A stretch of DNA of 64,000 bases from Planctomycetota bacterium (GTDB taxonomy: Bacteria > Planctomycetota > PLA2 > JAEUHO01). Location of the stretch: NCBI GenBank assembly GCA_020851795.1, contig JADZCA010000029.1:49271-113270 (forward strand). The letters run 5' to 3'. Shown piece after piece: positions 40,809 through 61,695 of the stretch; the first letter of the stretch is position 1; each line of letters starts with the position of its first letter. The translations under genes were made by a program, and so were the position numbers. The notes below the pieces were generated by a model. That model was given only the letters and a program-made list of their open reading frames with translations, did not search any database and had not been told where the DNA came from.

Positions 40809-40857
40809 GGGGGGGCTCCTTCGCGACCACCCCAAGATAGGCGATCCCGGCGACAGG

Positions 40858-40873
40858 TGTTCCCCGTGGAACA
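40858..40873. promoter_or_regulatory. parS-like site TGTTCCCCGTGGAACA (1 mismatch to TGTTCCACGTGGAACA)
   Basis: Read directly, 50 bp upstream of the parB start codon. Confidence 0.6.
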
Positions 40874-40902
40874 TCGATGGCCCGGGCGGCTCGGCCGCGC
40901 GA

Positions 40903-40918
40903 TGTTCCCCGTGGAACA
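40903..40918. promoter_or_regulatory. Second identical parS-like site TGTTCCCCGTGGAACA
   Basis: Read directly. 45 bp from the first copy, in the parB / membrane-protein divergent region. Confidence 0.6.
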
Positions 40919-40947
40919 TCACCGCGGGGCGCGTACACTCCCCGCCC

Positions 40948-41610
40948 ATGCTGCCTCGCGCCGCCTTCCCTTGGAGCCGACACCGCGCCGCGCGGGCGCT
41001 CCGCGCGCCCGGGCTGTGGGTCGCCGCAGGCCTGGGCGCGACCGCGGTCGTGGTCGGCTTCGGCCTCGACCTCCTCGCGTTCGATCACCCGGGCCAGCGG
41101 GGATGGTCCCTCGCGGTCTCGACGGCCACCGTGGTGTTCATCGCGTGGTGCCTCTGGGACCCGGAACTCCAAGACGAACAAGCCGACCGGTCGGTCCTTG
41201 AGGCATCGGCTCTCGGCGACGTCGGCCGATGGGCGGGCGCTCTCGCCGCCCGGAGCGCTTGGGCCGGGGCCCTAGCGGCGATGTGCCTGCTCTTAGCAAC
41301 TGTATTCTGCAAGCAAATGGGGGAGAGCGACGCTCCGAGCGTCCACGGGCTGGCCTGCGTTGCACTCGCGGCCTTCCCGGTGGTGGGGTGGGCGCACGCC
41401 ATCGCGGCCTGGCGCCCCGGGCCGACCGGGGCGGTGGTCGCGCTCGCGGCGTGGGTCGCCGGCCATGCGCTGCCCCCGCACGGCGTCGCGGCCCTGCTGC
41501 CGGCCCCCGCCGCGCCATCCGTGGATGCCGCGGCCGCGGCGCGTGGGGTCCTCGTGACCGCGGGCACGCTCCTCGTCGCCGCCGCCGGTCGACTCCGCCG
41601 TCGCGCGTGA
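40948..41610 (+). CDS. Hypothetical polytopic membrane protein (about 220 aa)
   Basis: 'GLWVAAGLGATAVVVGFGLDLLAF', 'VSTATVVFIAWCLW', 'LAAMCLLLATVF', 'LACVALAAFPVVGWAHAIAAW' are hydrophobic helices. ATG at 40948 chosen inside a 307-aa track ORF. Confidence 0.45.
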   Translation: MLPRAAFPWSRHRAARALRAPGLWVAAGLGATAVVVGFGLDLLAFDHPGQRGWSLAVSTATVVFIAWCLWDPELQDEQADRSVLEASALGDVGRWAGALAARSAWAGALAAMCLLLATVFCKQMGESDAPSVHGLACVALAAFPVVGWAHAIAAWRPGPTGAVVALAAWVAGHALPPHGVAALLPAPAAPSVDAAAAARGVLVTAGTLLVAAAGRLRRRA

Positions 41611-42476: not shown

Positions 42477-42983
42477 TCAGCCCGCGCGACGCGCGCGCTT
42501 GGACGGGATCTCGACCTGCACGGTCACTTCGCGCGGACGGCCGCGACGGCCCACGAAGCCGCGCACGACGCGCGCGCGCCCCGCGCCACCGCCCGACACG
42601 AGGAACACGTACGACACGTCCACCGGCCTGCCTTCGCCGCCCGCCGCGCGCGACGCGGAGAGCAGGCCCGCGGCGTCCGACTCCGACAGGCGCGCGGGGC
42701 CGCGCAGGTGGCCGTGCCACACGCCGACCACCGTGAGGCCGCGCTCGCGCGCGTCGCGCGCGGCCGCGACCGCCCCCGACGCGGGGAGGAGGAACGCGCG
42801 GTCGGGGTTGGCGTGCACGTTCTCGAGGACCTTGACCTCGGCGATGCGGACCGCGGTGGGCGCGGTGGTGCCGAGCATGAGCCCGCACGGCTCCTTCGCG
42901 CCGCCGACCGCCGCCTGGTGCGCGGCGAGGACACGCGCCATCGCGTCCGCGGAGATGAAGACTTTGGGCGGGGGCGTGCGCAC
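42477..42983 (-). CDS. JAB/MPN (JAMM) metalloprotease-family protein
   Basis: 'KEPCGLMLG...GVWHGHLRGPARLSESD' fits the JAMM motif E-x(n)-H-x-H-x(7)-S-x2-D. 168 aa. Confidence 0.7.
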   Translation of the reverse strand: MRTPPPKVFISADAMARVLAAHQAAVGGAKEPCGLMLGTTAPTAVRIAEVKVLENVHANPDRAFLLPASGAVAAARDARERGLTVVGVWHGHLRGPARLSESDAAGLLSASRAAGGEGRPVDVSYVFLVSGGGAGRARVVRGFVGRRGRPREVTVQVEIPSKRARRAG

Positions 42984-43034
42984 GGGGACCTCGATCGGTG
43001 GAGGAGCGCCGCGAGAAGACGCGGTGCGAAGCCC

Positions 43035-44417
43035 CTAGGATGGCCTCGTCGGCTCTCGAAGGTAAGCGAGGGACGAGGGCAAGTGCTCGAAACCGTCCTC
43101 GCCCAGGCGATGGGCGAACAGCGCCTCGAGGTCGGACAAGGGACGTTCGTCCCCCCGGAACCGGACGGTGGTCGCGGCCGGGTTGCCGGCGGCGAGCAGG
43201 ATGACGTCCATCAGCTGTCGGGCGTCCACCGACTGCTCGCCCATCGCCATCTCGACCGGGAGCCCGTGCCGCTGCACGACTCGCACGATGAGACCCGCGG
43301 GGCGCAGGTGGAGCTTCCTGCCGGGGGGGAGGGCGAGCTCGACCTCGCGCACCCGGCTGTACCCGTCGAGCAACGCCTTCGCCACCGCGCGCGCCTCGGC
43401 GAAGCACGCCGCCGCGTTGCGCACGCCGAAGTGCAGCGCACGCCGCAGCACGTCGCGGTGGGGGAGGAGCTCGTCGAGACGGAGGCGCGCGGGCGTCGCC
43501 TTCGGGGCGGCGGACACGCGGCCCCACAACGTCAGCAGGTACGCCACCGCCTCGAGCAGGTGCAGCAGGATGCTCACGTAGCCGCGGAACGTGCGCAGGC
43601 GCGGGTCCACCGCCTCGAGCACGCTGCCGGCGACCGCCGCGTCGTAGCCGGACTGCACGGCGTGCATGCGCACGCGCACCTCGTGCGCGGCCGCGTCGCC
43701 GAAGGCACCCCGCGCGACCGCCTCGAGCCCGTCGTCGTCGTCGGGCACGCGGACCGCCTCGACCGCGTCGGCGACGCGGAGGAACGCCGCGGCCGCGGCA
43801 CGCACGCGGTCGCGCTCGTCGCCCTCCTCGGGCACCTCCGCGTCCTGCGGGAGGCGCCAGCGCGCCTCCTCGCCCCGCAGCGCGGCGGGGTCGAAGGGCA
43901 CGTCGGGCGCGCGCATCGCCAGCCGGTCGGCCTCGGCGCGCAGCGACGCGAGCACCGCCTCGACGCGGTCCGACAGCCACGCGACCTGCACGTCGAGGTC
44001 GTGCCGGAACGTCGCGAGGTCGGCCCGGTCGCCCAGGTAGCGCCGGATGCGCCCGCGCAGGTGCAGCAGCGCGTGCAGCGTCTTCGCCGCGACGCGCAGC
44101 GCCGAGACCGCCTCGGCGAAGAACGCGTACCGTCGGTTGCCGCGCGCCCCGACCTCGAGCAGGCCCTGCTCGAGCCGCTCCGCGTCCTCGGCGACGCGGA
44201 GGCAGAACCGCCGCGAGAGGTCGCCCTCCACCCCGCCGCGCAGGTAGAGCTCGAGCGAGAGCAGCTCGGCCGCCTCCGCGGCGAGCCGGTCGCGGTACTC
44301 CGCCTCGGGCAGCACGCGGTCGAACGCCGCCGCCGCCGTCTCCCCCTCGACGGCGATCCGCCGCGCCGCGGGGGCGGACGCGTCGGGCCGGTCGGCAGGC
44401 GGCCTCGGGGCGTTCAT
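43035..44417 (-). CDS. Hypothetical 460-aa protein with C-terminal HPr-like (PTS phosphocarrier fold) domain
   Basis: C-terminus 'GRKLHLRPAGLIVRVVQRHGLPVEMAMGEQSVDARQLMDVILLAAGNPAATTVRFRGDE' aligns with HPr 'GIHARPATVLVQ...VNLKSIMGVMSLG...'. His15 equivalent is present and Ser46 is replaced by Gln. The N-terminal ~360 aa are helical with no recognised family. Confidence 0.55.
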   Translation of the reverse strand: MNAPRPPADRPDASAPAARRIAVEGETAAAAFDRVLPEAEYRDRLAAEAAELLSLELYLRGGVEGDLSRRFCLRVAEDAERLEQGLLEVGARGNRRYAFFAEAVSALRVAAKTLHALLHLRGRIRRYLGDRADLATFRHDLDVQVAWLSDRVEAVLASLRAEADRLAMRAPDVPFDPAALRGEEARWRLPQDAEVPEEGDERDRVRAAAAAFLRVADAVEAVRVPDDDDGLEAVARGAFGDAAAHEVRVRMHAVQSGYDAAVAGSVLEAVDPRLRTFRGYVSILLHLLEAVAYLLTLWGRVSAAPKATPARLRLDELLPHRDVLRRALHFGVRNAAACFAEARAVAKALLDGYSRVREVELALPPGRKLHLRPAGLIVRVVQRHGLPVEMAMGEQSVDARQLMDVILLAAGNPAATTVRFRGDERPLSDLEALFAHRLGEDGFEHLPSSLAYLREPTRPS

Positions 44418-44599: not shown

Positions 44600-45088
44600 A
44601 TGGCCCCCGGAGAGACCGTCTTCCGCTTCGCTGCGGAGGGGATCGACCTCGAGTTCGCCGGCAGCGAGGAGTTCGTCGAGAAGCAGCTCGCGCGCTTCCA
44701 GCCGTTCCTCCGCCACGCCGTCGGCGGCGGGGACTCGGCCCCGGCGGCGAGCCCGGCCGCCCCGAGCGCGCCGTCGGCCGCGCCCAAGGAGAGCCTCGAG
44801 GCGTTCTACGCGGCGCGTCCGCTGCGCGAGGGTCGCGGCGCGATCCAGGACCGCATCCTGCTCTTCATCCACTACCTCCAGCACGTGCAGGGCAAGCGCG
44901 AGGTCTCGGGCGACGACATCGTGTGGTGCTTCCAGCAGCTCGGCATCCCCGAGCCGAAGAACCTCCACAACGCGCTCGGGATCCTCAAGCGCAAGATCGG
45001 CCACCTCCAGGAGGGGAGCAAGCGCGGCCTCTACTCGCTCTCGCCCGAGGGCATCACCTACGTCGAGGGCCGCTTCCGCACGCGCTGA
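44600..45088 (+). CDS. Hypothetical two-domain small protein (162 aa)
   Basis: High GC3, good RBS and promoter. N-terminal 45 aa, A/P/S linker, C-terminal 'ILLFIHYLQHVQGKREVSGDDIVWCFQQLGIPEPKNLHNALGILKRKIGHLQEGSKRGLYSLSPEGITYVEG' which may be winged-helix-like. No family recognised. Confidence 0.6.
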   Translation: MAPGETVFRFAAEGIDLEFAGSEEFVEKQLARFQPFLRHAVGGGDSAPAASPAAPSAPSAAPKESLEAFYAARPLREGRGAIQDRILLFIHYLQHVQGKREVSGDDIVWCFQQLGIPEPKNLHNALGILKRKIGHLQEGSKRGLYSLSPEGITYVEGRFRTR

Positions 45089-45141
45089 GCGTGGGCGCGC
45101 CGACGGACCGCGGGGGTGCGCTCCGCGGTCCGCCCGCCGGC

Positions 45142-46293
45142 TCAGCCTCGCGCGTCGTCCTCGTCGGGCACGAAGTCCACGAGCACGGCGTTGAGGACGT
45201 CGATCCCCGCCGGCGTGCACCGCAGGCGGTCGCCGTCCCGTTCGAGGCGCCCGGCGACGACGTGGCGCTCGATGGCGTCGCGGTGCTCGACGCGCGGGTC
45301 CACGCCGTGGCGCGCCGCCAGCGCCGCGAGGTCCACGCCCTCGTCGACGAGGCGCAGGCCCATCATCAGCGACTCGAACAGCGCGCTGCGCGGCGCCGGC
45401 TGCTCCTCCCACGCGACGGCCTCGCCCGCCGCCGCGACGCGCGCCGCGTAGGCCGCGGGGTCGTCCACGTTCTTCCACCGGCGGCCGCCGACGTGGGAGT
45501 GCGCCCCGGCGCCGAGCCCGAGCCACTGCGCGTTGCGCCAGTAGCCGAGGTTGTGCCGACACTCCGCGCCCGGCTTGGCGTGGTTGGACACCTCGTAGCG
45601 ACGGTAGCCCGCGGCGGCGAGGTCTTCGCACGCGGCGCGCAGGTGCGCGAGGTCGCGTCCCTCGATGGGCGCCTCGAGGCGGCCCTCCTCGAGCGACTTC
45701 GTGAACGCCGTGCCCTCCTCGAAGGTGAGGACGTACGTGCTCACGTGCTCGGGGCCCAGCGCGACCGCGCGCGCCACGTCGCGGCGCTGCTCGCCGACCG
45801 ACTGGCCCGGCGTGGCGAGGATCAGGTCGAGCGAGACCCGCTCGACGCCGCCGTCGCGCAGCACCTCGACGCTGCGCACGGTGTCGCGCGCGTCGTGCGC
45901 GCGGCCGAGGACCCGCAGGCGCCGCTCGTCGAACGACTGCGCCCCGAGGCTGACGCGCGTCACGCCGTGGCGGCGCAGGACGCGCACCTTCTCGGGCGTG
46001 AGCGTGCCGGGGTTCGCCTCGACGGTCACCTCGGTCAGCCGCGACGTCGTCACCGCCGACATCACGCCGTCGAGCATGCGGTCGATCGCCTCCGCCGACG
46101 GCCACGTCGGCGTGCCGCCGCCGACGAACACCGTGGCGGGGGCGACGTCACGCGCCCGCGCGCGCGCCTCCGCGACGAGCGCCTCGACGTAGGCCGGCAC
46201 CTCCCCGTCGCGGCCCGCGTGCGAGTTGAAGTCGCAGTAGGGGCACTTCGACGCGCAGAAGGGGACGTGGACGTAGAGGTGGTCGACCGGCAC
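45142..46293 (-). CDS. hemW: Radical SAM heme chaperone HemW (coproporphyrinogen-III-oxidase-like)
   Basis: 'LYVHVPFCASKCPYCDFNS' CxxxCxxC plus HemN-like C-terminal domain. 383 aa. Confidence 0.9.
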   Translation of the reverse strand: MPVDHLYVHVPFCASKCPYCDFNSHAGRDGEVPAYVEALVAEARARARDVAPATVFVGGGTPTWPSAEAIDRMLDGVMSAVTTSRLTEVTVEANPGTLTPEKVRVLRRHGVTRVSLGAQSFDERRLRVLGRAHDARDTVRSVEVLRDGGVERVSLDLILATPGQSVGEQRRDVARAVALGPEHVSTYVLTFEEGTAFTKSLEEGRLEAPIEGRDLAHLRAACEDLAAAGYRRYEVSNHAKPGAECRHNLGYWRNAQWLGLGAGAHSHVGGRRWKNVDDPAAYAARVAAAGEAVAWEEQPAPRSALFESLMMGLRLVDEGVDLAALAARHGVDPRVEHRDAIERHVVAGRLERDGDRLRCTPAGIDVLNAVLVDFVPDEDDARG

Positions 46294-46384
46294 CCGCCCA
46301 TCCTCGCAGGCGCCCCGGGCCCCGCGCCGGACCGACCCGGCCGCCGCGCGCCCGGGCCGGGCCCGCGGGCCCCGACGGCGTCCC

Positions 46385-47296
46385 TCAGGCGTCGAGCGAG
46401 CCGCGCAGGCGCTCGAGGGCCGAGCGCTCGAGCTGGCGCACGCGCTCGCGCGACAGCCCGAGGTGGCGGCCGATCTCGCGCAGCGTGAGGCTCTTGCCCT
46501 CGGTGCCGACGCCGAGCCCGAAGCGCAGCCGCAGCACCTCGGCCTCGCGCGGCTCGAGCCGGCCGAGCGCGTCGCGGACGCGCTCGACGTCGCTCGCGTC
46601 GAGGTCGGCGGCGACCGGGTCGGTCGCGCGCGGGTCGGCCACGCGCTGGTCCTCGTCGAAGAGCGCGTCGAGCGACACGGTCGCGCCGGAGAGCCCGACG
46701 CTCGCGTAGACGCGCTGGAGGATCCGGCGGCGCGCCGCCGAACCGGGCATCGCGCGCGCCACCTCCTCGGCGTCGGGCGCGCGCCCCTCGCGCTGCTCGA
46801 AGCGGCGGGCCCACTCGCGCCAGCGCGCGAGCTCCTGCGACATGTGGCGCGGGATGCGGACCGTGCGCACGCTGTGCACGAGCGCGCGCCGGATCGCCTG
46901 GCGGATCCACCACGTCGCGTACGTCGAGAAACGGATGTTTCGCGCCGGGTCGAAGAGCTCGACCGCGTGGTAGAGGCCGACGTTGCCCTCCTCGACGAGG
47001 TCGGGGAGCGAGAGGCCGCGCGAGGTCCACCGCTTGGCCTCGGCGACGACGAGGCGCAGGTTGCGCACCGTGAGCTCGAAGCGGGCCTCCTGCGCGCGCT
47101 GCTCGTCCACCATCGCCTGCAGCGCGGCGAGCGGCGACGCCTCGGCGGCCTTGCGGCGGCGCCCGAAGCCCGCGCTCGTCGGCGAGGCGACCTGGATGCG
47201 GCGCGCGAGGTCCTTCTCCTCGTCGGCGGTGAGGAGCGGGTAGGCCCGGATCTCCCGCAGGTAGGTGTCGAAGGGAGACTCGGCCCGGCGCGGCAT
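46385..47296 (-). CDS. Sigma-70 family RNA polymerase sigma factor (303 aa)
   Basis: Region 2 '[40 protein letters not shown]'. Region 4 '[29 protein letters not shown]'. The track ORF is 541 aa with a spurious N-terminal part. Confidence 0.85.
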
Positions 47297-47307
47297 GGCC
47301 GCAGAGC

Positions 47308-48462
47308 CTACGCGCCCGCGGCCGGGGGCGAAGCGGCGCCTGCGCCGCCGACCGCCCGCCGGTACACCGCCTCGTAGAGCGGCACGACGCGGTCCCGGCC
47401 GAAGCGCTCGACGGCCCCCGCGCGGGCGGCCTCGGAGAGCTCCCGGAGGCGGGCGGGCGCGCCGAGCAGGTCGAGCACCGCGCGCGCCATCGCCGCGTCG
47501 TCGCAGGGCGGCAGCAGCCGCCCGTCCACCCCGTCGCGGACGACCTCGGGGAGGCCGCCGGCCTCGAACGCCACGGCCGGCGTCCCGCACGCCATCGACT
47601 CGAGCACCGCGAGCCCGAACGACTCGAACTCGCTGGGCAGCAGGAACAGGTCGGCGAGCGGGAGCAGCGTCTCGACCTCGGTCTGCGCGCCGACGAAGCG
47701 GACGCGGTCGCGCACGCCGAGCTCGCGCGCGCGGGCCTCGCAGGCGGCGCGGTCGGGGCCCTCGCCGACCATGAGCAGCACCGCGGGGCGCTCGGCGTGG
47801 ACCTTCGCGAGCACCTCGACGGCCGACACGGCGCGCTTGACGGGGCGGAAGTTGCTCACGTGCACGAGCAGCGCGTCGTCGGGCCGCGCGAACGCGCGGC
47901 GGCGCGCGCGGTCGGGCTGCGGCGCGAAGCGGACGGGGTCGACGAAGTTCGGCACGACGTCGATCTCGCGCGTCGGCCCGAAGACGCGGTCGGTCTCCGC
48001 ACGCAGCCACCCCGACACCGACGTCACGGCGTCGGAGGCGCGGATCGCGTGGCGGGTCATGCGCGCGTACGCGCGGTCCTGGCCGACGATGGTGATGTCG
48101 GTCCCGTGGAGCGTCGTGACCACCGGGAGCCGCCGCGGCGCGACGACCTCGCGCGCGAGCACCGCCGCGAGCGCGTGCGGGATCGCGTAGTGCACGTGGA
48201 CGACGTCGAGGCCCTCCTCCTCCGCGGTCTCGGCGATGCGCGAGGCGAGGGCCGCGTCGTAGGGCGGGTAGCGGAACAGCGGGTAGCTGGTGACCTCGAC
48301 CTCGTGGTAGCGGATGCGGTCGTCGAAGGCCGGCAGCCGCAGCGGCGGGGCGTAGGAGAGCACGTGCAGCGCGTGCCCGCGGTCGGCCAGCGCCATCGCG
48401 AGCTCGGTGGCGACGACGCCGGACCCGCCGGCGGTCGGGTAGCAGACGACGCCGATCCTCAC
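47308..48462 (-). CDS. bshA: BshA-like GT4 glycosyltransferase (N-acetyl-alpha-D-glucosaminyl L-malate synthase)
   Basis: '[30 protein letters not shown]...[16 protein letters not shown]...[11 protein letters not shown]...TTLHGTDIT' closely parallels B. subtilis BshA blocks. GTG start overlaps the bshB1 stop (GTGA). Confidence 0.85.
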
Positions 48463-49208
48463 CGCACCATCCCGTCGCGCTTGCGCAGCGCCGCCACCGG
48501 GTCGTCGAGCGGGACGACGCGGTCGGCGAGGAAGGGCTCGCCGAACTCCGCGCCGATGCGCGAGCCCCAGTAGCGGTAGCGCGCCTCGACGCGCGCGAGG
48601 AACGCGGGCGAGGTCAGGTTCGTGGCCGGGCCCTTCGCGCCGTCGAGGCCGAGCTGCGACGCGTAGCAGCGCATCACCTCGAGGCGCTCCTCCCACACCG
48701 CGCTGACGTCCACGACGAAGGTGGGGGTCGTCTCCTGGTGCCCGAAGTAGTGGATCAGCGCGTCGGGGCGGTGGGCCGGCAGCTCGCCGCCCTTGGCCTT
48801 GCCCACCGTGGCGAGGTAGTACGCGCGACGCACGAGCGTCGCCGCCTCGACGTGGTCGGGGTGCAGGTCCACGGGGCACGGTGCGACGACGAGGCGCGGG
48901 CGCCAGCGGCGGATCGCGGCGACCACCGGCTCGGTGGCGGCGGCGGTGGCCTCGACGGCGCCGTCGGGCATCCCGAGGTTCTCGCGCCCGACGAGCCCGA
49001 GCCGGCGCGACGCCTCCGCGGTCTCGGCGGCGCGCGTCTCCGGCGTCCCGCGCGAGCCCGCCTCGCCGCGCGTGAGGTCCACGACCGCGCAGCGGTAGCC
49101 CGCCTTGCGCAGCGTGAGCATGAGCCCGCCCGCGCAGAACTCCACGTCGTCGGGGTGGGGCCCGAACGCGAGGACGTCGGCGGGCTCGGGCAGGGCGGGC
49201 GCGGACAT
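48459..49208 (-). CDS. bshB1: BshB1-like PIG-L/LmbE-family deacetylase
   Basis: '[20 protein letters not shown]...HPDHVEA' are PIG-L motifs. Lies between bshC and bshA. Confidence 0.85.
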
Positions 49209-49270
49209 GGACGGGCCATCCTACGCGCCCCGCAGGCGCCCCGGGCGCCCGACCGGCCCGCGGCCGCGCG

Positions 49271-50710
49271 TCACACGACGACGAAGTCGTCCGCGGCCGC
49301 GACCGCCTCGAGCCCCTGCCGCACCCCCTCGACGCCCCGTCGGGCCACGATCGACACCGGCGACAGGACCCGCTCCTGCGCGCGCCCGCGCGGGCGCAGC
49401 GCCTCGACCGCGCGCCGCCGCCGCGCCACGGCGCGCTCGGCGTCGGCGCCGAGCGCCCGCCGGTGGGCCTCGGCCGCGTCGCGCAGGCCGCGCACCGCCC
49501 CGCCGAGCGCGTGCGCGACGCCCGGCTCGCGCGAGAGCCGCGCGAGCACCGCCTCGACCTCGTCGGCGGTGCGCCGCAGCGCCGCGGCCTCGTCGTCGTC
49601 GGGCGTGGCGACCTCGAGCGCCGCGGCGGGGACCGGCGCGCCCCGCGCGACCGCGCGCGCGTCGAGCCCGGCCTCGGCGAGCGCGGCGAGCGCCCGCTCG
49701 TCGGCCCACGCGCCGCTCGGCCGCGCCACGACCTCGGGGGCGCCGAGCCCGAGCACGGCGTGCGCGGGCGCCACCGCGGCCACGTAGGCCGCCTCGGTGG
49801 GGCCCGCGACCTGCGCGACGACGGGCAGCAGCGCGTCCTGCAGCAGCACGCGGCCGACGACGTCGGCGCTGCCGAGGCTCGGGTCGCGCTCGAGCGCCGC
49901 GGCGAGCGTCGCGCGGTCGAACGCGCTCGGCTCGCCGCGCAGCCGCACGCGCGCACCGTCGAAGCCGACGCGCAGGCGCGGGCCCCGGGGCGCCGACCGC
50001 ACGAACAGCGGCGCCTCGTCGGGTCGCGGGTCCACGGGCACCGCGAGGCCGGCCGCGCGGCGGCGGCCGACCTCGGCGCGCACCGCGTCGCCGATGGCGT
50101 CGGCGTGCCGCACGAGCGCGGCGAGGGCCGGTCCCGACCACGGCGCCAGCACGCGCGGCTCGACGAAGACGAGGCCGACGTCGCCGAGCACGCGGGCGAG
50201 CACCTCGGTGGACCACGTCGCGAGGTCGGTGGTCTCCGACGACGGCCGCGCCAGCGCCAGCGCCTCGCGGCCCCGCTCGGTGGCCGGGAGCGCCGCGGCG
50301 AGCGCGTCGAGGACGCGCCCCGTCGCCGCCGGGTCGAGCGGCACGTCGGCGACGCTGCGCCCCGCGCCGTCCACGCCGAGCGAGAGCACGCGCGGCGCGC
50401 CCACGGCGTCGAGCACCGTCGCGGTGTCCATCTCGTCCCAGTCGTGGTCGTCGGAGGCGACCCAGAACACGGCGACGACGGGCGCTCCGGGCCGGCTGCG
50501 CCGGCGGGCCTGCGCGAGCGCGCCGACGGCCTTGTGCAGCGAGAGCAGCGGGCCACCGAGGAGCCCCGGCTGCTGTCCCGTCGCGACCACCGTCGCGCCG
50601 TCGAGCAGCGCGCGCGCCGCACGCTCCGCCGCCGGGCCGGCGCCGACGCGGCGCTGGTGCGCGACGAGCGCGTCCACGAGCGCCGCGGGGACGGGCGGAC
50701 GGCCGCTCAC
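49271..50710 (-). CDS. bshC: BshC-like bacillithiol biosynthesis cysteine-adding enzyme
   Basis: 'VVATGQQPGLLGGPLLSLHK' and 'VFWVASDDHDWDE' match the recalled BshC/YllA blocks VVGGQQAGLLTGPLYTIHK / IFWVAGEDHDLDE. Start assigned to the GTG overlapping the methyltransferase stop (GTGA). The upstream part of the 730-aa track ORF is shadow. Confidence 0.8.
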   Translation of the reverse strand: MSGRPPVPAALVDALVAHQRRVGAGPAAERAARALLDGATVVATGQQPGLLGGPLLSLHKAVGALAQARRRSRPGAPVVAVFWVASDDHDWDEMDTATVLDAVGAPRVLSLGVDGAGRSVADVPLDPAATGRVLDALAAALPATERGREALALARPSSETTDLATWSTEVLARVLGDVGLVFVEPRVLAPWSGPALAALVRHADAIGDAVRAEVGRRRAAGLAVPVDPRPDEAPLFVRSAPRGPRLRVGFDGARVRLRGEPSAFDRATLAAALERDPSLGSADVVGRVLLQDALLPVVAQVAGPTEAAYVAAVAPAHAVLGLGAPEVVARPSGAWADERALAALAEAGLDARAVARGAPVPAAALEVATPDDDEAAALRRTADEVEAVLARLSREPGVAHALGGAVRGLRDAAEAHRRALGADAERAVARRRRAVEALRPRGRAQERVLSPVSIVARRGVEGVRQGLEAVAAADDFVVV

Positions 50711-51513
50711 CGGCCGGCCCGCCGCCGCGCGACCCGCACGAAGCGCGGGGCCTGCGCCGAGGCCGGCGCGCCGAGCAGGTCGCCGCACGGCTCGCCGACC
50801 GGCTCGAGGCCCGCCGCGACGAGCAGCCGGTCGATCGACGCGCGGTCGTGGACGCGCACGCGCTCCTCGACGTCGAACACGTCGCGGCCCGTGCGCAGGT
50901 CGGAGACGACGATTCGCTTGCGCACGTACGGGCCGCCCGGTGTCGTCGGGTCGAGGCGGCGACGGAACGTCACCCGCCACGGTGGCCGCAGGTCCTCGCC
51001 GTCGGCGTCGGGGGCGGCGAGCACCGCCTCCGCGTTGAGCACGTCGAGGAGGAAGCGGCCGCCGGGCACGAGCGCGCGCGCCACCGACGCCACGACGCGC
51101 GCGTCGTCCTCGGGGCGCTCGAAGTAGCCGAACGACGTGAACAGGCTGACGGCGCCGTCGAACTGCGGGCCGAAGGGGAGGTCGCGCATGTCGGCGCGCA
51201 CGTAGGTGGGCGCGCCCGGCAGCCCGGGCGAGCGCCTTCTCGCCTGCGCGAGCAGCGCCTCGGAGAGGTCCACGCCCGTGACGCGCAGGCCGAGCGCGGC
51301 GAGCGCGCGGGCGTAGCGCCCGGCTCCGCAGCCGACGTCGAGCACGCGCGCGCCCGGCGGGAGCGCGAGCAGGCGCGCGATCCCGGGCGCGTTGCGCGTC
51401 GCCTCGGCGTCGTCGCGGTGCGCGTAGACGACCGGGTACCACGCGCCGAACGCGCGCACCCACCAGGGCGCGCCGTCGCCGCCGGGCTCAGACGACGCGA
51501 CGTCGCGCGGCAT
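50707..51513 (-). CDS. Class I SAM-dependent methyltransferase (Methyltransf_11-like)
   Basis: 'VLDVGCGAGRYARALAALGLRVTGVDLSEALL...GAVSLFTSFGY' SAM-binding motifs. Coupled to bshC. Confidence 0.75.
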   Translation of the reverse strand: MPRDVASSEPGGDGAPWWVRAFGAWYPVVYAHRDDAEATRNAPGIARLLALPPGARVLDVGCGAGRYARALAALGLRVTGVDLSEALLAQARRRSPGLPGAPTYVRADMRDLPFGPQFDGAVSLFTSFGYFERPEDDARVVASVARALVPGGRFLLDVLNAEAVLAAPDADGEDLRPPWRVTFRRRLDPTTPGGPYVRKRIVVSDLRTGRDVFDVEERVRVHDRASIDRLLVAAGLEPVGEPCGDLLGAPASAQAPRFVRVARRRAGR

Positions 51514-52372
51514 CGAGCTCCTCCTTCGCCGCCCGCGCGGCCGCCTCGACGGCGGCGCGCCACGGCGTGGTCGGGTCCTTCGGCGTCGGGAACGTCACGC
51601 TGCGGGAGGCGTTGACGACGGCGCCGCGCCCGCCGGCGAGGTGGGCCGCCGCGGTGTCGGCGGCGGTGGCGCCCTGCGCGCCGTAGCCGGGGACGAGGAA
51701 CGGCGTCGTGGGCAGCGCCGCACGGAGCGCGCGCAGCTGCTCGGGCCACGTCGCGCCGACGACGGCCCCGACGCACGAGAGCCCGCTCCGCCCGCGGTGG
51801 CGCTCGCCCACCGCGCGCACCATCGCCGCCGTGCGCTCGTAGACGCGGGCGCCGCCGACGTCGAGGTCCTGGAGGTCGGCCGCGCCGGGGTTGCTGGTGC
51901 GCACGAGCACGTAGAGCCCCTTGCCGTGGGCGGCCGCCACCTCCACGAACGGCGCGAGCGAGTCGGCGCCCATGTAGGGGGCGACCGTGAGGGCGTCCAC
52001 CTCGAAGTCGCCGCCGGGCGCGAGGTGCGCCTGCGCGTACGCCTCCGCCGTCGTCGAGAGGTCGCCGCGCTTGCCGTCGCCGATCACGAGCAGCCCGCGC
52101 GTGCGCGCGCCCGCGACGATGCCGGCGTAGGCGGCGAGCCCGCCGAGGCCGAACGCCTCGAAGAAGCCGAGGTTGGGCTTGACGCAGGCGGCGTGCGGCG
52201 CGACGAGGTCGAGCACCTCGAGGCCGAAGCGCAGCAGCGCCTTGCCGGGATCGCCGCCTGCCGCGGCGCGGACGTCGGCGGGGAGCTTGTCGAGCCGCGG
52301 GTCGAGGCCCACGCACAGCGGAGACGACTTCGAGGTGATCGCGGCTTCGAGGCGGTCGGCGTACGCGTCCAT
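51488..52372 (-). CDS. pyrF: Orotidine 5'-phosphate decarboxylase (type 2, long form)
   Basis: 'LCVGLDPRLDKLP...VKPNLGFFEAFG...LVIGDGKRGDLSTT' are type-2 PyrF motifs. 294 aa. Confidence 0.85.
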   Translation of the reverse strand: MDAYADRLEAAITSKSSPLCVGLDPRLDKLPADVRAAAGGDPGKALLRFGLEVLDLVAPHAACVKPNLGFFEAFGLGGLAAYAGIVAGARTRGLLVIGDGKRGDLSTTAEAYAQAHLAPGGDFEVDALTVAPYMGADSLAPFVEVAAAHGKGLYVLVRTSNPGAADLQDLDVGGARVYERTAAMVRAVGERHRGRSGLSCVGAVVGATWPEQLRALRAALPTTPFLVPGYGAQGATAADTAAAHLAGGRGAVVNASRSVTFPTPKDPTTPWRAAVEAAARAAKEELDAARRRVV

Positions 52373-52516
52373 GCCGACGATCGTACCGGCGCGACGGCGC
52401 GTCCCGGCACCGCGCCGCGGAGCGGACGACGCGTCGCGGGGCGACCCACGTCGCCCCCGGGCCCCGCGCCGCGCCGACGTCTTCGGGTCGTGCGCCCGGT
52501 GGGCCGGGAGCCCGCG

Positions 52517-53188
52517 TCAGCGGACGACCCGCGCCCGTCGGGCCGGCAGTCCGCACGAGGCGAGGAACGCCGAGAGCAGACGCGTCCCGTGCGGCGTCAG
52601 ATACGACTCGGGGTGGAACTGCACGCCGACGACCGGAAGGGTGCGGTGCGCGAGCGCCATGATCTCGCCCTCGGGCGACCACGCGTGCGCCTCGAGCACC
52701 GTCGGCAGCGCGTGCGGCGAGACGACGAGGCTGTGGTAGCGCGCGGCGGGGAACGGGTCGGGCAGGCCTGCGAGGACGCCGTGCCCATCGTGGCGGACGG
52801 GGAGCGCACGACCGTGCACGGGGACGCGGGCGCGGACGACCCGCGCGCCGAAGGCCGCCCCGATCGCCTGGTGGCCGAGGCACACGCCGAGCAGCGGCAC
52901 CGGCTCGTCGGCGCCGGCGCACGCGCGCACGAGCGGCACGCAGATCCCCGCCTCGGTGGGCGAGAGCGGCCCCGGCGAGAGGACCACACCGCGCGGCCGC
53001 GCCGCGAGCACGTCGGCGACGCTCACCTCGTCGTGGCGGACGACCTGCACGTCCGCGCCGAGCTGCGCGAGCAGGTGCGCGAGGTTGAGCGTGAACGAGT
53101 CGTAGTTGTCCACGAGCACGACGCCGCGCGCCCCGGCCCGCTCGAGGACGGGGGCACGACGGAGGCGACCGGGGACGGCGTCGGGCAC
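52517..53188 (-). CDS. Class I glutamine amidotransferase TrpG/PabA-type (anthranilate/aminodeoxychorismate synthase component II); start uncertain
   Basis: 'VVLVDNYDSFTLNLAHLL...GVCLGHQAIGAAFG...VGVQFHPES' triad motifs. N-terminal 240 aa of the track ORF are antisense to the cysteine desulfurase gene. Start set to GTG 53188. Confidence 0.75.
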   Translation of the reverse strand: MPDAVPGRLRRAPVLERAGARGVVLVDNYDSFTLNLAHLLAQLGADVQVVRHDEVSVADVLAARPRGVVLSPGPLSPTEAGICVPLVRACAGADEPVPLLGVCLGHQAIGAAFGARVVRARVPVHGRALPVRHDGHGVLAGLPDPFPAARYHSLVVSPHALPTVLEAHAWSPEGEIMALAHRTLPVVGVQFHPESYLTPHGTRLLSAFLASCGLPARRARVVR

Positions 53189-53255
53189 GGGGGCGATCTC
53201 GGCGGGCTCTCGCGCCCGCCACCGTATCCTCGCGCCCGCCTCCGTGCCTCCCCCG

Positions 53256-54401
53256 ATGTCCCCGCGCCTCGACCTCGACCGCAACGCGACCGCGCCCACC
53301 GACCCCACGGTCGTCGAGGCGATGGTGCGCCTGCTCGGCGAGCCGCTGGGCAACCCGAGCTCGCCCCACACGGCGGGGCGGCGGGCGCGCGACGTGCTCG
53401 AGGCCGCGCGCGACGGCGTGGCGCGCACGCTCGGCTGCCGCGCGAGAGAGATCGTCTTCACCAGCGGCGGGACCGAGGCGTGCCACCTCGCGGTGCAGGG
53501 CGCCGCGCGCGCCCGCGTGGGCTCGGGCCGGCGCCTCGTCGTGTCCGCGGTCGAGCACCCCGCCGTGCTCGACGCGGCCGACGCGCTCGTCCCCGAGGGC
53601 TTCGAGGTCGTCCGGGTGGCCCCGGGCCCCGACGGGCAGGTGGACGCGGCGCGCTTCGTCGCCGCGTGCGGGCCGGGGACGACCGTCGCGGCGCTCATGC
53701 TCGCCAACCACGAGACGGGCGCGTTGCAGCCCGTCCGCGAGGTGGCGGCGGCGCTGCGCCCCCGGGGCGTCACCACGGTGTGCGACGCCGCGCTCGCGCC
53801 GGGGCTGCTCGAGGTGGCCCCCGAAGCGCTCGGCGTGGACCTCCTCGCGCTCTCGTCGCACAAGGTGGGCGGTCCGACGGGCGTGGGGGCGCTCTACGTC
53901 CGCCGCCGCACGCGTCTCGTGCCGTTGCAGCGAGGGGGCGTCCAGGAGGACCGCGTCCGGGGCGGCACCGAGAACGTGGTGGGCGCCCACGGCTTCGCCC
54001 TCGCCCTGGCGCGTGCCGTCGCGGCGCGTCCCGCGCGCGCCGCGGCGTGCGCCGCCCTGCGCGCCCGCCTGCTCGAACGGGTGCTCGCGCTCCCGGGGAC
54101 CCGGCTCGTCGGGCCGCACGACGGGCTGCCGAGCACCGCGACGGTCGCGTTCGAGGGCTGCGAGGGCGAGTCGATGCTCGTCAACCTCGACCTCGAGGGG
54201 ATCGCCGTCAGCACCGGGAGCGCGTGCGCGGTGGGGGGCACGGAGGCGAGCCCGGTGCTGCTCGCCATGGGTCTCTCCCCGCGCGTCGCGGCCTCCACGC
54301 TGCGCTTCAGCGTCGGCGACGACCTCCGTCTCGACGACGTGGATCGGGTGGGCGTCGTCGTCGCTCGCGTCGTCGGTCGGCTCCGCTCGCTCTCGCGGTG
54401 A
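53256..54401 (+). CDS. Cysteine desulfurase (class V aminotransferase, IscS/NifS-like)
   Basis: 'GNPSSPHTAGRRARDVLEAARDGVA...EIVFTSGGTEACHLA...LSSHKVGGPTGVGALYV...STGSACA' PLP-lysine and active-site Cys motifs. Confidence 0.85.
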   Translation: MSPRLDLDRNATAPTDPTVVEAMVRLLGEPLGNPSSPHTAGRRARDVLEAARDGVARTLGCRAREIVFTSGGTEACHLAVQGAARARVGSGRRLVVSAVEHPAVLDAADALVPEGFEVVRVAPGPDGQVDAARFVAACGPGTTVAALMLANHETGALQPVREVAAALRPRGVTTVCDAALAPGLLEVAPEALGVDLLALSSHKVGGPTGVGALYVRRRTRLVPLQRGGVQEDRVRGGTENVVGAHGFALALARAVAARPARAAACAALRARLLERVLALPGTRLVGPHDGLPSTATVAFEGCEGESMLVNLDLEGIAVSTGSACAVGGTEASPVLLAMGLSPRVAASTLRFSVGDDLRLDDVDRVGVVVARVVGRLRSLSR

Positions 54402-54495
54402 CGCCGGGGAAGGCGCGTCGCCCACCCCGATCGTGGGGCCGTCGTAGTGAACACCGAGTTCTCTGACCGCATCTTCGCGGCTTGTGCGCCCGACG

Positions 54496-54524
54496 TTGAC
54501 GACCCGTCCCGACGCCCGTAGGTT
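54496..54524 (+). promoter_or_regulatory. Candidate sigma-70 promoter for dnaA: TTGACG -17 nt- TAGGTT
   Basis: gTTGACGacccgtcccgacgcccgTAGGTTc read directly, about 50 nt upstream of the dnaA start. Confidence 0.4.
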
Positions 54525-54575
54525 CCGCGCCCCGCTCGGCGGAACGACCCGCGAGCCCGACCACGGACGCCCCGA

Positions 54576-56018
54576 ATGACGGCCTCGAACGACCCGCGCT
54601 CCGACCTGCAGCGCCGGATCCTCGAGGCGGTGCGGCGGCGGCTCAAGAAGCGCCAGTTCGAGACGTGGTTCGCCCGGGCCTCCGTGCTGCGCCTGACGGA
54701 GGCCGAAGTCGTCGTGGGGGTCCCGAACTCCTTCCAGCAGGAGTGGATGACGAAGGAGTTCACCGGGGTGGTGTCCCAGGCCGCCCTCGAGATCACCGGG
54801 GCCCCGGTGGCCGCCCGGTTCGAGGTCGAGGGGGGCGCTGCCCCCCGGTCGGCCGACTCACCGGCGCCGCCCCCGACCCCGCACGACGTGCCCGCGCCCG
54901 TCGCGCCGGCCGTCGAGCCGATCGAGCCGGCCCGCCACGGCCGCCCGGCGCCCGCCGCCGCGCCGGTCCCGCCGCCGCCCCCCGACGCGACGGCCCCGCT
55001 GCCGCTCCAGCCGCACTACACGTTCGACCACTTCGTCGTCGGCCCGAGCAACCAGTTCGCCCACGCGGTCGCCCGCGCCGTCGCCGACCACCCGGGCGGC
55101 GAGAACAACCCGCTCTTCCTCTACGGCTCGGTCGGGCTCGGCAAGACGCACCTGCTCCAGGCGATCTGCCACGAGATCCTGCGCCGCAACCCGACGCTGC
55201 GGATCGGCTACCTCTCCTGCGAGCAGTTCACCAACGAGTACGTGTCGGCGGTGCAGCGCAACGCCACCGAGGCCTTCCGCGCGCGCCTGCGCAACGTGGA
55301 CATGCTCGTCATCGACGACATCCACTTCCTGGCGAACAAGGAACGGACGCAGGAAGAGTTCTTCCACACGTTCAACTCGCTCTACCACCAGCGCAAGCCG
55401 ATCATCCTGTCGAGCGACGCCGCGCCCAACGAGATCCCCACGCTCCAGGAGCGCCTCGTGTCGCGGTTCCGCTGGGGCGTCGTCGCGCAGCTCGAGCCGC
55501 CCGAGGTCGAGACCCGCATGGCGATCGTGCGGCGCAAGGCGGAACAGACCGGCCTGCAGCTGCCGCCCGACGTCGTGGAGTTCATGGCCACGAGCGTGCG
55601 CAACAACGTGCGCGAGCTCGAGGGCGCCCTCGCGAGCATCCGCAGCCGCGCGGCGATCGAGCAGCGCCCGATCGACCTCACGCTCGCCCGCACGGCGCTC
55701 GAGCCGCTGCTCCGCCAAGAGCCGACGCCGGTCTCGATCGAGCGGATCACCGAGACCGTCGCCGGCCACTTCGGCCTCAAGCTCTCCGACCTGCGGTCCT
55801 CCAAGCGCACGAAGAGCGTGTCGCAGCCCCGCCAGGTCGCGATGTGGCTCGCCCGCGAGCTCACGTCGCTCTCCTTGGTCGAGATCGGCGACTACTTCGG
55901 CGGCCGCGACCACACGACCGTGCTCTACGCCGTCGAGCGGACGGCGGACCGCGTCGCACAGCACGACGGGCTGCGGCAGACGGCCGAGCGGCTGCGCGAC
56001 CGGTTGCGCGCCCGCTGA
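54576..56018 (+). CDS. dnaA: Chromosomal replication initiator DnaA
   Basis: 'NPLFLYGSVGLGKTHLLQAICHEI' Walker A. 'MLVIDDIHFLANKERTQEEFFHTFN' box. C-terminal DNA-binding 'RQVAMWLARELTSLSLVEIGDYFGGRDHTTVLYA'. Confidence 0.95.
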   Translation: MTASNDPRSDLQRRILEAVRRRLKKRQFETWFARASVLRLTEAEVVVGVPNSFQQEWMTKEFTGVVSQAALEITGAPVAARFEVEGGAAPRSADSPAPPPTPHDVPAPVAPAVEPIEPARHGRPAPAAAPVPPPPPDATAPLPLQPHYTFDHFVVGPSNQFAHAVARAVADHPGGENNPLFLYGSVGLGKTHLLQAICHEILRRNPTLRIGYLSCEQFTNEYVSAVQRNATEAFRARLRNVDMLVIDDIHFLANKERTQEEFFHTFNSLYHQRKPIILSSDAAPNEIPTLQERLVSRFRWGVVAQLEPPEVETRMAIVRRKAEQTGLQLPPDVVEFMATSVRNNVRELEGALASIRSRAAIEQRPIDLTLARTALEPLLRQEPTPVSIERITETVAGHFGLKLSDLRSSKRTKSVSQPRQVAMWLARELTSLSLVEIGDYFGGRDHTTVLYAVERTADRVAQHDGLRQTAERLRDRLRAR

Positions 56019-56543
56019 CCGAACGGGTCACGGCGTTCCCCGACCGACCGCCCTGTTGGGCGGCGGGATTCCCCATGCCCATGCCGATGCAACTCGTTGG
56101 CCACCGGGCGGTTGGGTTGATCTCCCACGGACTTTCCACAGCCGCTGCCGCTGCGTCCTCCCACACGGTCGCCCCCGGCTCGATCGCCGCGAGCACCCCT
56201 ACGGCTAGCGGTCCTCTCGGTGCGATTCTTGGGGAAGGCGGGCGGAGCCGCGGGGACGTTCTCGGGACAGTCGGCGCGGCCCCGACACGACCCCGAGAAG
56301 GGGTCCTGCGAAGTCCCGAATTCGTTGTCAGCGTCCCCCTCGTCTCCGTACAATCCGTCCCCGGATCGAGGCCGTCTGGAACCCCGGTTGGACTCGTCGT
56401 AACCCCTTTGAATAAAGGGGGATAGGGCGAATGAGACAGCCGTGTTTCCACGAACGGACAGGGCTCAGGGAGACGAGGGAGAGAACCCAGAGTTCTCCCT
56501 CTCTTCCGGGACCCAGAGCAACCCGCTCCGACGAGAGGCAGTC
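56019..56543. other. Putative oriC (dnaA-dnaN intergenic, 525 bp) with DnaA-box-like 9-mers and an AT-rich inverted repeat
   Basis: CTTTCCACA at 56132-56140, TCTCCCACG at 56121-56129, TGTTTCCACG at 56443-56452, and CCCCTTTgaatAAAGGGG inverted repeat at 56403-56420. It is the longest intergenic region next to dnaA. Confidence 0.5.
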
Positions 56544-57656
56544 ATGCGCCTGAACGTCCCGACCGCCCCGCTGCTCGAAGCCGTCGGACTCGCCTCGGCG
56601 GTGGCCGCCTCGAAGAGCCCCAAGCGCATCCTCGAATGCGTGGCGCTCCGTGCGTCGCGGGCCGACGGGATCCGAGTCGAAGCGAGCGACCTCGACGTCA
56701 CCATCGCGATGCGCCTCGATGCGGGCGAGGTGGTCGAGGACGGCGTGGTCGCCGTGCCCGCGACGCGGCTCGTCAGCGTGCTGCGCGAGGTGGGCGAGGG
56801 CCGCAAGGACCTCACGCTCGTCGGGCAGGGCGGCCGGCTCGAGGTGGACACCCCCGACTGCCAGTTCCGCATCCACGGCGAGGACCCACAGGAGCTGCAC
56901 CCGTCCGAGGCCTTCCCCGGCGCCGCCGCGGCCACGCTGCCGTTCTCGGTGCTGCGCTCGATGATCGACCGGACCCAGTTCGCCACCGCGCGCGAGCCGG
57001 GTCGCTTCGCGCTGCACGGCGTGCAGTTCCGCTTCACGTCGAAGGAGCTCGAGGTCGTCGCCACCGACGGCCGCCGCTTGGCGAAAGCCGTGCACCCCGT
57101 GGCCTCCGGCCCGGCGACCGAGCTCAAGGTGATCGTGGGCACGAAGCCCCTCGCGCTCGTCTCGCGCCTGGCGGCCGACCCGACCGCGCAGGTCGAGGTC
57201 GCCGTCCACGACCGGCGGATCTACTTCCGCGTCGGACGCTGCCTGCTCTCCTCGCGCCTGATCGACGGCGCCTTCCCGCCGTACGAGCAGGTGATCCCGC
57301 AGTCGAGCGCCAAGGGCTTCGTGGCGAAGGCCGAGCGGCTCGCGACCGCGCTGCGCCGCGCCTCGCTGCTGACGACGCGCGAGATGCGCTCGGTCACGCT
57401 CGACTTCGGGCCCAACCTCCTCGTGCTCTCCTCGCGCGCCCCCGACGTCGGCGAGGCGAAGGTCTCGCTCGAGGTCCCCTACACCGAGGCTCCCGAGAAG
57501 CTCGGCTTCAACCCCGACTACCTGCTCGACGCGCTCAAGGTGATGGACCCGCAGGCGGACGTCCGCTTCGAGGTGACCTCGGCGCGCTCGCCCGGCAAGC
57601 TCACCGCGGGCGACGGCTACGTCTACGTCGTCAGCCCGGTGTCGGTGACGGAGTGA
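56544..57656 (+). CDS. dnaN: DNA polymerase III beta sliding clamp
   Basis: 'MRLNVPTAPLLEAVGLASAVAASKSPKRILECVALRA...' three-domain clamp. GAGAGG RBS before ATG 56544. 370 aa. Confidence 0.9.
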   Translation: MRLNVPTAPLLEAVGLASAVAASKSPKRILECVALRASRADGIRVEASDLDVTIAMRLDAGEVVEDGVVAVPATRLVSVLREVGEGRKDLTLVGQGGRLEVDTPDCQFRIHGEDPQELHPSEAFPGAAAATLPFSVLRSMIDRTQFATAREPGRFALHGVQFRFTSKELEVVATDGRRLAKAVHPVASGPATELKVIVGTKPLALVSRLAADPTAQVEVAVHDRRIYFRVGRCLLSSRLIDGAFPPYEQVIPQSSAKGFVAKAERLATALRRASLLTTREMRSVTLDFGPNLLVLSSRAPDVGEAKVSLEVPYTEAPEKLGFNPDYLLDALKVMDPQADVRFEVTSARSPGKLTAGDGYVYVVSPVSVTE

Positions 57657-58015
57657 CCGGAGCCCGGGCCCCGACCCCGACCGGTCCGTCGCGCGAGCCT
57701 GCGAGGGGCGGCCCCGCCCGCGCGATCGGGCAGGTGCTGCCGACGGCGATGCGCGGCCTCGGCCTGCCGCCGCGGGCGCTCGTGCACCGCGTCGAGGAAG
57801 CCTGGAAGGCCGTGGCCGACCCGGCGTGGGCGGCGCGCACGCGCATCGTCGCGCTGCAGCACGGCACGCTCCTCGTCGGCGTCGCCTCCGCGCCGCTGCG
57901 CGACGAGCTCGCCCGATTCCACGCCGAGCGCCTCCTCGAGGCGATGCGCGCCCGGCTGACCAAGGACCCGCTGGTGGCGCTGCGCTTCGTCGCGGCGGCC
58001 GAGGAACCCCGATGA
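57653..58015 (+). CDS. DUF721-domain protein (DciA-like), start uncertain (GTG 57653 / GTG 57734 / ATG 57749)
   Basis: 'AIGQVLPTAMRGLGLPPRALVHRVEEAWKAVADPAWAARTRIVALQHGTLLVGVASAPLRDELARFHAERLLEAMRARL' resembles DUF721. Sits at the dnaN-gyrB position. GTGA overlap with dnaN and ATGA overlap with gyrB. Confidence 0.6.
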   Translation: MTGARAPTPTGPSREPARGGPARAIGQVLPTAMRGLGLPPRALVHRVEEAWKAVADPAWAARTRIVALQHGTLLVGVASAPLRDELARFHAERLLEAMRARLTKDPLVALRFVAAAEEPR

Positions 58016-61299: not shown

Positions 61300-61695
61300 T
61301 CAGACCGGCGGCGGGTCGTCGTCGTACGGCGCGCGCGTCGGCGCGTCGGACGTGCGCGGCGGCGCCGCCGTGCGCGGCTCCGCAATCGGCGCCGTCACCG
61401 GCGCGGGCGGCGGGGCCGCCGACGCCACGGGCCCCGTGCCGAGGCGCGGGTCGGGCCCGGGCGCGAAGGTCGTCGCCGCGGGCGTCGGCGGCGTCGGGCG
61501 ATACGGCGGGCGCGCCACCGCGTCCGGCTTCATCACGTTGCGCGAGAGGTCGTCGAAGCCGCGTCGGAACGTGCGGTACGCGCCGCCGAGCGAGCGCATG
61601 ACCTCGGGGAGCCGCCCGCCGAAGAGCAGCAGCGCGACGATGCCGACGACGACCATCTCGCCGAAGCCGATGTCGAAGAACGCGAGCGGCGTCAT
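61300..61695 (-). CDS. tatA: Twin-arginine translocase subunit TatA/E with Pro-rich C-terminal tail
   Basis: 'MTPLAFFDIGFGEMVVVGIVALLLFGGRLPEVMRSLGGAYRTFRRG' is the TatA TM plus amphipathic helix. 131 aa. ATGA overlap with the upstream gene. Confidence 0.8.
   Translation of the reverse strand: MTPLAFFDIGFGEMVVVGIVALLLFGGRLPEVMRSLGGAYRTFRRGFDDLSRNVMKPDAVARPPYRPTPPTPAATTFAPGPDPRLGTGPVASAAPPPAPVTAPIAEPRTAAPPRTSDAPTRAPYDDDPPPV

Follow-up and report, generated by a model that had tools for sequence, protein, structure and literature searches.

The NmbA enzymes of Chlorobaculum tepidum (CtNmbA, CT1040) and Paenibacillus polymyxa methylate bacillithiol (BSH) in vitro (Hammerstad et al. 2025, PMC12719100). 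The pathway's four genes are scattered in C. tepidum (CT0548, CT1419, CT1558, CT1040), and in Bacillus subtilis the bsh genes occupy two loci, mgsA-bshB1-bshA-cca-birA and panE-bshC (Chandrangsu et al. 2018, PMC5790435). Planctomycetes were counted among the major lineages for which no low-molecular-weight thiol had been documented or predicted (Hiras et al. 2018, PMC6282198), and two cultured planctomycete species, Engelhardtia mirabilis and Saltatorellus ferox, have the full N-methyl-bacillithiol (N-Me-BSH) gene set (Hammerstad et al. 2025 Supplementary Dataset 1, PMC12719100). Here we describe a 64,000-nucleotide stretch of contig JADZCA010000029.1 (positions 49,271 to 113,270; the window) from an uncultured, GC-rich member of the Planctomycetota, in which bshA, bshB1, bshC and the gene for an NmbA-like methyltransferase all lie within 4.2 kb, a cluster that very probably encodes the complete four-enzyme route to N-Me-BSH.

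The window has the same four-gene set as E. mirabilis and S. ferox, members of the same phylum, and differs from these cultured species in its uncultured lineage and its GC content of about 77%. Unlike in C. tepidum, all four genes are clustered, with nmbA and bshC overlapping by 4 nt. The three bsh enzyme families are those of B. subtilis, and bshB1 and bshA are adjacent in the same order; unlike in the window, B. subtilis has bshC at a separate locus and no nmbA, its BshC is 539 rather than 479 residues long, and the bsh neighbors are coenzyme A and methylglyoxal genes rather than pyrF, a sigma factor gene and hemW. The genes of interest are all on the minus strand and are listed from the highest coordinates downward.

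About 52517-53188, minus strand: glutamine amidotransferase (GATase, TrpG/PabA-like) gene, from open reading frame (ORF) translation; the homologous gene in the related planctomycete loci L081-L083 carries PF00117 GATase.
51488-52372, minus strand: pyrF, orotidine-5'-phosphate decarboxylase, 294 aa (TIGR02127, 271.4 bits against a cut-off of 110.6).
50707-51513, minus strand: nmbA-like class I S-adenosylmethionine (SAM)-dependent methyltransferase, 268 aa (Pfam Methyltransf_25/11); candidate bacillithiol N-methyltransferase.
49271-50710, minus strand: bshC, short form, 479 aa, putative cysteine-adding enzyme (TIGR03998, PF10079); GTG start.
48459-49208, minus strand: bshB1, N-acetylglucosaminyl-malate (GlcNAc-malate) deacetylase, 249 aa (TIGR04001, 243.8 bits against a cut-off of 182.5; Pfam PIG-L).
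47308-48462, minus strand: bshA, N-acetylglucosaminyl-L-malate synthase, 384 aa (TIGR03999, 471 bits against a cut-off of 273.7, full length; GT4 domains).
46385-47296, minus strand: sigma-70-family factor gene, 303 aa, group 1/2 type without region 1.1 (Pfam).
45142-46293, minus strand: hemW, radical-SAM heme chaperone, 383 aa (TIGR00539, 279 bits against a cut-off of 205.4).

NCBIfam and Pfam scans recovered on the minus strand every gene named in the preliminary description, whose outer limits are exact: 51513 is the ATG of the methyltransferase gene and 47308 the end of the bshA stop codon. BshA and BshB1 were identified there with good reason, as both match their NCBIfam equivalog models above the trusted cut-off, BshB1 over profile positions 2-223 of 226. 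The bshA gene starts with GTG. A coding scan based on GC content at third codon positions (GC3) independently gives the same starts for bshC, bshB1, bshA, the sigma gene and hemW. In the predicted pathway, BshA would join UDP-GlcNAc and L-malate, BshB1 would take off the acetyl group, BshC would add cysteine to yield BSH, and the NmbA-family methyltransferase would carry out SAM-dependent methylation of the amino group on the cysteine of BSH.

The methyltransferase is the component that would distinguish N-Me-BSH from BSH synthesis. Its best match among solved structures is 9RI2 (E 3.9e-30, 108 bits; residues 10-264 versus 9-261), the crystal structure of CtNmbA deposited by Hammerstad et al. 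(2025, PMC12719100). The alignment runs end to end, segments of the Cap domain included; the next structure reaches 55 bits over the Rossmann core only. By BLASTP the protein is 34% identical to CtNmbA (E 2e-37, 94% coverage, residues 11-263), with lengths of 268 and 266 aa. Published criteria for orthologs (Hammerstad et al. 2025; Hiras et al. 2018) are E <= 1e-20, identity above 25-30%, coverage above 80% and similar length, and by these the methyltransferase classes as a CT1040 ortholog in a comparison made within the 64-kb window and not as a whole-genome reciprocal search. Like CtNmbA, it belongs to the class I SAM-dependent methyltransferases and has a length of about 266 aa and a predicted Cap made up of an N-terminal part and a four-strand insertion; it shares the motifs W..F...Y..VY.HR, VLD..CG.GR, DMR and SFGYF and the conserved residues K199, E217 and R257, and its gene co-occurs with bshA, bshB and bshC. 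The class I SAM-binding motifs align with those of CtNmbA (VLDVGCGAGR, D82, D108 and SFGYF, where Y130/F131 correspond to Y134/F135 of CtNmbA).

In profile comparisons, whichever way they are run, NmbA stands about 100 bits apart from other methyltransferases. Against a family profile of 43 planctomycete homologues from which CtNmbA was excluded, 9RI2 reaches 192.7 bits and the next methyltransferase, 1WZN, 87.3. Conversely, a reference-only NmbA hidden Markov model (HMM) was made from 35 homologues of Chlorobi, Bacteroidota, Ignavibacteria, Kapaibacteria and Paenibacillus-type taxa and holds no planctomycete and no bshC-linked sequence. This model gives the window methyltransferase 180.9 bits, the other family members 179-283 bits (45/45) and the outgroups 1WZN, 3D2L and DesVI 77-97. 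At alignment positions conserved in at least 90% of 80 family members, the window protein keeps all 33 signature residues (33/33), of which R66, F128, G129, K199 and E217 differ in the outgroups; its N-terminal W17 and F22 have no aligned outgroup counterpart. A neighbor-joining (NJ) tree with three outgroup methyltransferases taken from Protein Data Bank (PDB) alignments places the protein within the family, as part of a planctomycete clade, and leaves the three outgroups outside; the close planctomycete clade is recovered in 98 of 100 bootstrap replicates. Curated libraries (NCBIfam, Pfam) return a generic class I methyltransferase only, with the best NCBIfam match far below its cut-off. Homologues found in a scan of one genome per species come from Bacteroidota, Paenibacillus and relatives, Gemmatimonadota, Ignavibacteriota, Acidobacteriota, Chlamydiota and Planctomycetota, which agrees with the phyla reported to hold NmbA and thus supports the NmbA assignment.

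Gene context points the same way. Among 83 surveyed loci related to the window methyltransferase, 32 have bshC immediately downstream in the same orientation (29/70 when only loci with enough downstream sequence are counted), and three further loci are near-variants of this linkage. Linked loci come from at least seven phyla, among them Planctomycetota, Gemmatimonadota/Longimicrobiales, Acidobacteriota (Thermoanaerobaculia, Holophagae and other), Chloroflexota, Calditrichota and Krumholzibacteriota. An exact 4-nt overlap between the methyltransferase stop and a bshC start codon is present in 18/33 linked loci, far above the roughly 5% expected at any one position; the nearest in-frame bshC start falls within 20 nt of the methyltransferase stop in 29/33. 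Both counts take the start codon nearest that stop, which favors small gaps. The linkage is absent from Bacteroidota, Paenibacillus and Ignavibacteria loci. In two loci, from Kapaibacteria and Bacteroidota (L020, L037), bshC is found about 2-3 kb off on the opposite strand. The full nmbA-bshC-bshB1-bshA order also occurs without pyrF, sigma or hemW in Chloroflexota, Holophagae and unclassified metagenome-assembled genomes (L041, L036, L058, L056 and others). The cross-phylum module is nmbA-bshC(-bshB1-bshA). Keyword searches of the main texts of Hiras et al. (2018, PMC6282198) and Hammerstad et al. (2025, PMC12719100) gave no mention of gene order, operons or this linkage. Consecutive accessions in the supplementary table of the latter hint at bsh gene linkage, and the last two in the E. 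mirabilis row (WP_419191964.1, WP_419191963.1) hint at adjacent genes (PMC12719100). Taken with the top structure match to 9RI2, the profile gap and the retained signature residues, this cross-phylum linkage to bshC supports the earlier suggestion that the methyltransferase is NmbA-like.

Several observations weigh against a complete N-Me-BSH route. Motif I of the window methyltransferase reads VLDVGCGAG, with G for A relative to VLDIACGAG of CtNmbA, and the activity of the window enzyme is predicted from sequence. The NJ tree has the expected topology but weak bootstrap support, splitting the window methyltransferase plus CtNmbA from the three outgroups in only 58 of 100 replicates. In a Foldseek search of the PDB with an AlphaFold (AF2) model of the methyltransferase (mean predicted local distance difference test score, pLDDT, 91.5), 9RI2 comes first by E-value, but at template modeling (TM) scores of 0.66/0.76, and CcbJ and CypM reach about 0.75/0.82; the fold does not discriminate NmbA. 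Even CtNmbA itself is modeled by AlphaFold with a Cap topology that departs from its crystal structure (Hammerstad et al. 2025, PMC12719100). The fold search is therefore unable to confirm an NmbA Cap, and the modeled structure supports the methyltransferase class and not the narrow-basket Cap topology specific to NmbA. BshC scores below the TIGR03998 cut-off of 265.8 with profile positions 44-518 of 529 matched, it lacks about 45-52 N-terminal residues present in the BshC proteins of the planctomycete locus L001 and of B. subtilis, and in vitro reconstitution of its reaction has never been achieved (PMC5790435). A promoter and terminator scan of 44900-54700 found no sites, a result that is uninformative because none would be expected in shuffled sequence either at 77% GC. 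To our knowledge, no thiol chemistry or enzyme assay exists for the window organism or for any planctomycete.

An unlikely alternative is that the organism makes plain BSH. The methyltransferase would then be a paralogue within the NmbA family whose substrate is some other amine or small molecule, for example a precursor or conjugate of BSH or a metabolite unrelated to it, and its adjacency to bshC would reflect shared expression only. Class I methyltransferases switch substrate readily, and homologues at the margins of the family could have other methyl acceptors (Hammerstad et al. 2025, PMC12719100); a 4-nt overlap with bshC across many phyla is nonetheless hard to square with an unrelated substrate. 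Although the window protein is among the lowest ingroup scores against the reference NmbA HMM, its NJ bootstrap is weak and the fold search does not set NmbA apart from the N-methyltransferases CcbJ and CypM, the gap of about 100 bits separates NmbA from every other solved methyltransferase in both profile directions, and the full set of signature residues is kept, those of the Cap region among them. Substrate timing is also pertinent: no N-methyl-cysteine was found in C. tepidum (Hiras et al. 2018, PMC6282198), which argues that methylation takes place after BshC acts. We therefore continue to favor N-Me-BSH as the predicted thiol. The 37 window proteins scanned against Pfam include no bacilliredoxin, Bdr/YpdA or BstA.

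In Planctomycetota the module is embedded in a larger block. The order pyrF-nmbA-bshC-bshB1-bshA-sigma is found in 8/8 planctomycete loci (L001, L002, L010, L017, L061, L081-L083), with a hemW match downstream in six; the L017 and L002 loci stop short of hemW or at it. Closer relatives repeat the order of all eight genes, and the closer planctomycete loci share with the window a divergent cysteine desulfurase gene and, alongside, dnaA-dnaN-(dciA)-gyrB. Outside Planctomycetota, the linked loci have no pyrF, sigma gene or hemW beside them. The sigma protein has Pfam regions 1.2, 2 and 4, with region 3 weak and region 1.1 absent, and scores alike, at 150-175 bits, against SigA, RpoD, RpoS and SigB.

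The preliminary description had placed the sigma gene directly after bshA, as the measured 11-nt gap confirms, and had drawn from this a redox-linked regulation. That the sigma factor is a dedicated regulator of redox or thiol stress tied to the bsh genes seems to us decidedly improbable. The short distance and the persistence of bshA-sigma adjacency in all eight planctomycete loci, even where the methyltransferases are only 37-40% identical, would fit such a role, but pyrF, hemW, GATase, cysteine desulfurase and dnaA-dnaN-gyrB are kept in the same block, which may be plain synteny, and no sigma gene stands beside any non-planctomycete nmbA-bshC(-bshB1-bshA) locus. The protein is as similar to primary as to alternative sigma factors and could be of housekeeping type, and the Pfam scan shows neither an anti-sigma gene nor a redox-sensing domain. 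Because the adjacency is confined to Planctomycetota and absent from other linked loci, we regard the sigma gene as belonging to a synteny block that is specific to this lineage and lies near the replication origin; the protein may be an alternative or even the main sigma factor. The proposed redox linkage finds no support in these data.

The BshC identification in the preliminary description holds with a reservation: TIGR03998 is the sole family match (225.6 bits, E 1.3e-66), at a score under its cut-off. Pfam PF10079 is matched at 156 bits, and the protein aligns to residues 62-439 of B. subtilis BshC (4WBD), an alignment that takes in the conserved GQQPGL segment and the remainder of the Rossmann-like domain. 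Given the sole family match, PF10079, 4WBD and conserved synteny, and despite the score, we treat the protein as a putative divergent short-form BshC. Its start corresponds approximately to residue 50 in L001 BshC and to residue 47 in the B. subtilis protein. Extra N-terminal residues relative to the window number 40-56 in most linked loci and 0-1 in L081-L083; BshC is 479-495 aa long in the closest ~25 database relatives (49-66% identity) and 520-559 aa in deeper planctomycete relatives. The reading frame is intact with a strong coding signal (GC3 0.98), which, together with the short form common to the closest relatives, indicates purifying selection. Judged from these sequences, the short BshC is a clade trait under selection and not an assembly artifact or pseudogene. 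That it is inactive, leaving a broken pathway that ends at glucosaminyl-malate (GlcN-malate), is highly improbable: the sub-cut-off score, the unmatched profile positions 1-43 and the longer N termini encoded in most linked loci would fit such a loss, but the short form is shared by some 25 close relatives, apparently under purifying selection, and retains the GQQPGL segment and Rossmann-like domain. A longer bshC frame reaching into the methyltransferase gene was rejected, as the upstream translation is Arg/Ala/Gly/Pro-rich, off-frame and unlike the N terminus of the L001 protein, and the signal of coding sequence begins at 50710. In the clade with short BshC, the 4-nt overlap with nmbA is kept despite the missing N terminus.

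The two GTGA overlaps reported earlier, at methyltransferase/bshC and bshB1/bshA, both measure 4 nt. Not all junctions are overlapping or within 12 nt, as had been stated: bshC and bshB1 are 62 nt apart, a gap similar to the 39-56 nt of relatives, and an earlier bshB1 start is excluded by an in-frame TAG 12 nt upstream of its ATG. The sigma gene and hemW are separated by 91 nt. Nor is the methyltransferase gene likely to be the start of the operon: pyrF, missed earlier, lies directly upstream, its 3' end overlapping the methyltransferase start by 26 nt, and overlaps of 20-26 nt are also seen in L001 and L081-L083. The methyltransferase ATG at 51513 has AAGGAGGAG just before it, and the N terminus MPR... 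aligns with the MPP/MPR N termini of homologues. Given the 26-nt overlap, pyrF is probably on the same transcript as the methyltransferase gene. The GATase gene, whose start is uncertain (GTG at 53188 or 53119), precedes pyrF by 144 nt and may be the first gene of the transcription unit. From this arrangement we infer that (GATase-)pyrF-nmbA-bshC-bshB1-bshA-sigma-hemW are probably co-transcribed, and start/stop overlaps at pyrF/nmbA, nmbA/bshC and bshB1/bshA would allow translational coupling.

The bshC-bshB1 and sigma-hemW gaps gave RNA folding z-scores of -0.25 and -0.60, which support no structured element. An exact 15-mer, CCCGGGGCGCCTGCG, occurs at 49231-49245 and 46305-46319 on the minus strand, only in these two larger intergenic gaps of the cluster, and is followed by AGGATGG at 49216-49222 and 46298-46304, 7-10 nt upstream of the bshB1 and hemW starts. 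The pattern CTGCG-N(0-9)-AGGATGG has two matches versus 0.05 expected. The CCCGGGGCGCCTGCG/AGGATGG repeat may serve both genes as a ribosome-binding element or as an internal promoter. When the intergenic gaps were aligned with their counterparts in L081 and L083, only a short GCGTAGGATG segment upstream of bshB1 proved common, and this with L081.

Elsewhere in the window, genes of the replication origin neighborhood comprise parB, dnaA, dnaN, gyrB and dnaE (39954-41084, minus strand; 54576-60639, plus strand; 1839-6053, plus strand). The 526-nt gap between dnaA and dnaN (56019-56543) is a candidate origin; the canonical DnaA box TTATCCACA was found nowhere in the 64-kb window at up to one mismatch. 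A 1071-aa protein (6200-9415, minus strand) carries a TIR domain at its N terminus (TIR_2 / ThsB_TIR, residues 17-124) and, after it, WD40 beta-propeller repeats, an architecture resembling TIR-containing defense or signaling proteins. The minus strand at 42477-44417 encodes a Prok-JAB protein and, paired with it, a 460-aa protein recognizable only in its C-terminal HPr-like domain, and 44600-45088 on the plus strand encodes a 162-aa protein with no family match; all three genes are also beside hemW in L081. Three further ORFs (32166-33470, plus strand; 61692-63998, minus strand; 18938-19726, minus strand) have GC3 of at least 0.96 and no Pfam match at E <= 1e-5.

The constant order of nmbA before bshC, with the exact 4-nt overlap in 18/33 loci from many phyla, leads to the idea that the pairing reflects a physical or kinetic partnership of the two enzymes in which BSH is methylated as it is made, accompanied in the planctomycete clade by loss of the first ~45 residues of BshC. 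We give this only a slim chance, the evidence for NmbA as a BshC partner being gene order. Any natural partner of BshC would be of note, as its reaction is still unreconstituted, and co-expressed NmbA-BshC pairs could open a way into it if the idea is correct.

The N-Me-BSH pathway is already known and already predicted in planctomycetes; the window adds an uncultured, high-GC relative and leaves understanding of the pathway unchanged. Only the conserved nmbA-bshC coupling and the short BshC go slightly beyond published work. The cross-phylum coupling constitutes independent genomic-context support for the function assigned to NmbA, and it furnishes a simple annotation rule for proteins that pipelines label only as class I SAM-dependent methyltransferase. 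Database homologues of the methyltransferase number 1382 at E <= 0.001, many labeled Planctomycetota. The window and the hundreds of metagenomic homologues together suggest that N-methyl-bacillithiol may be a clade-wide trait in this planctomycete clade, its predicted pathway encoded as one compact unit near the replication origin.

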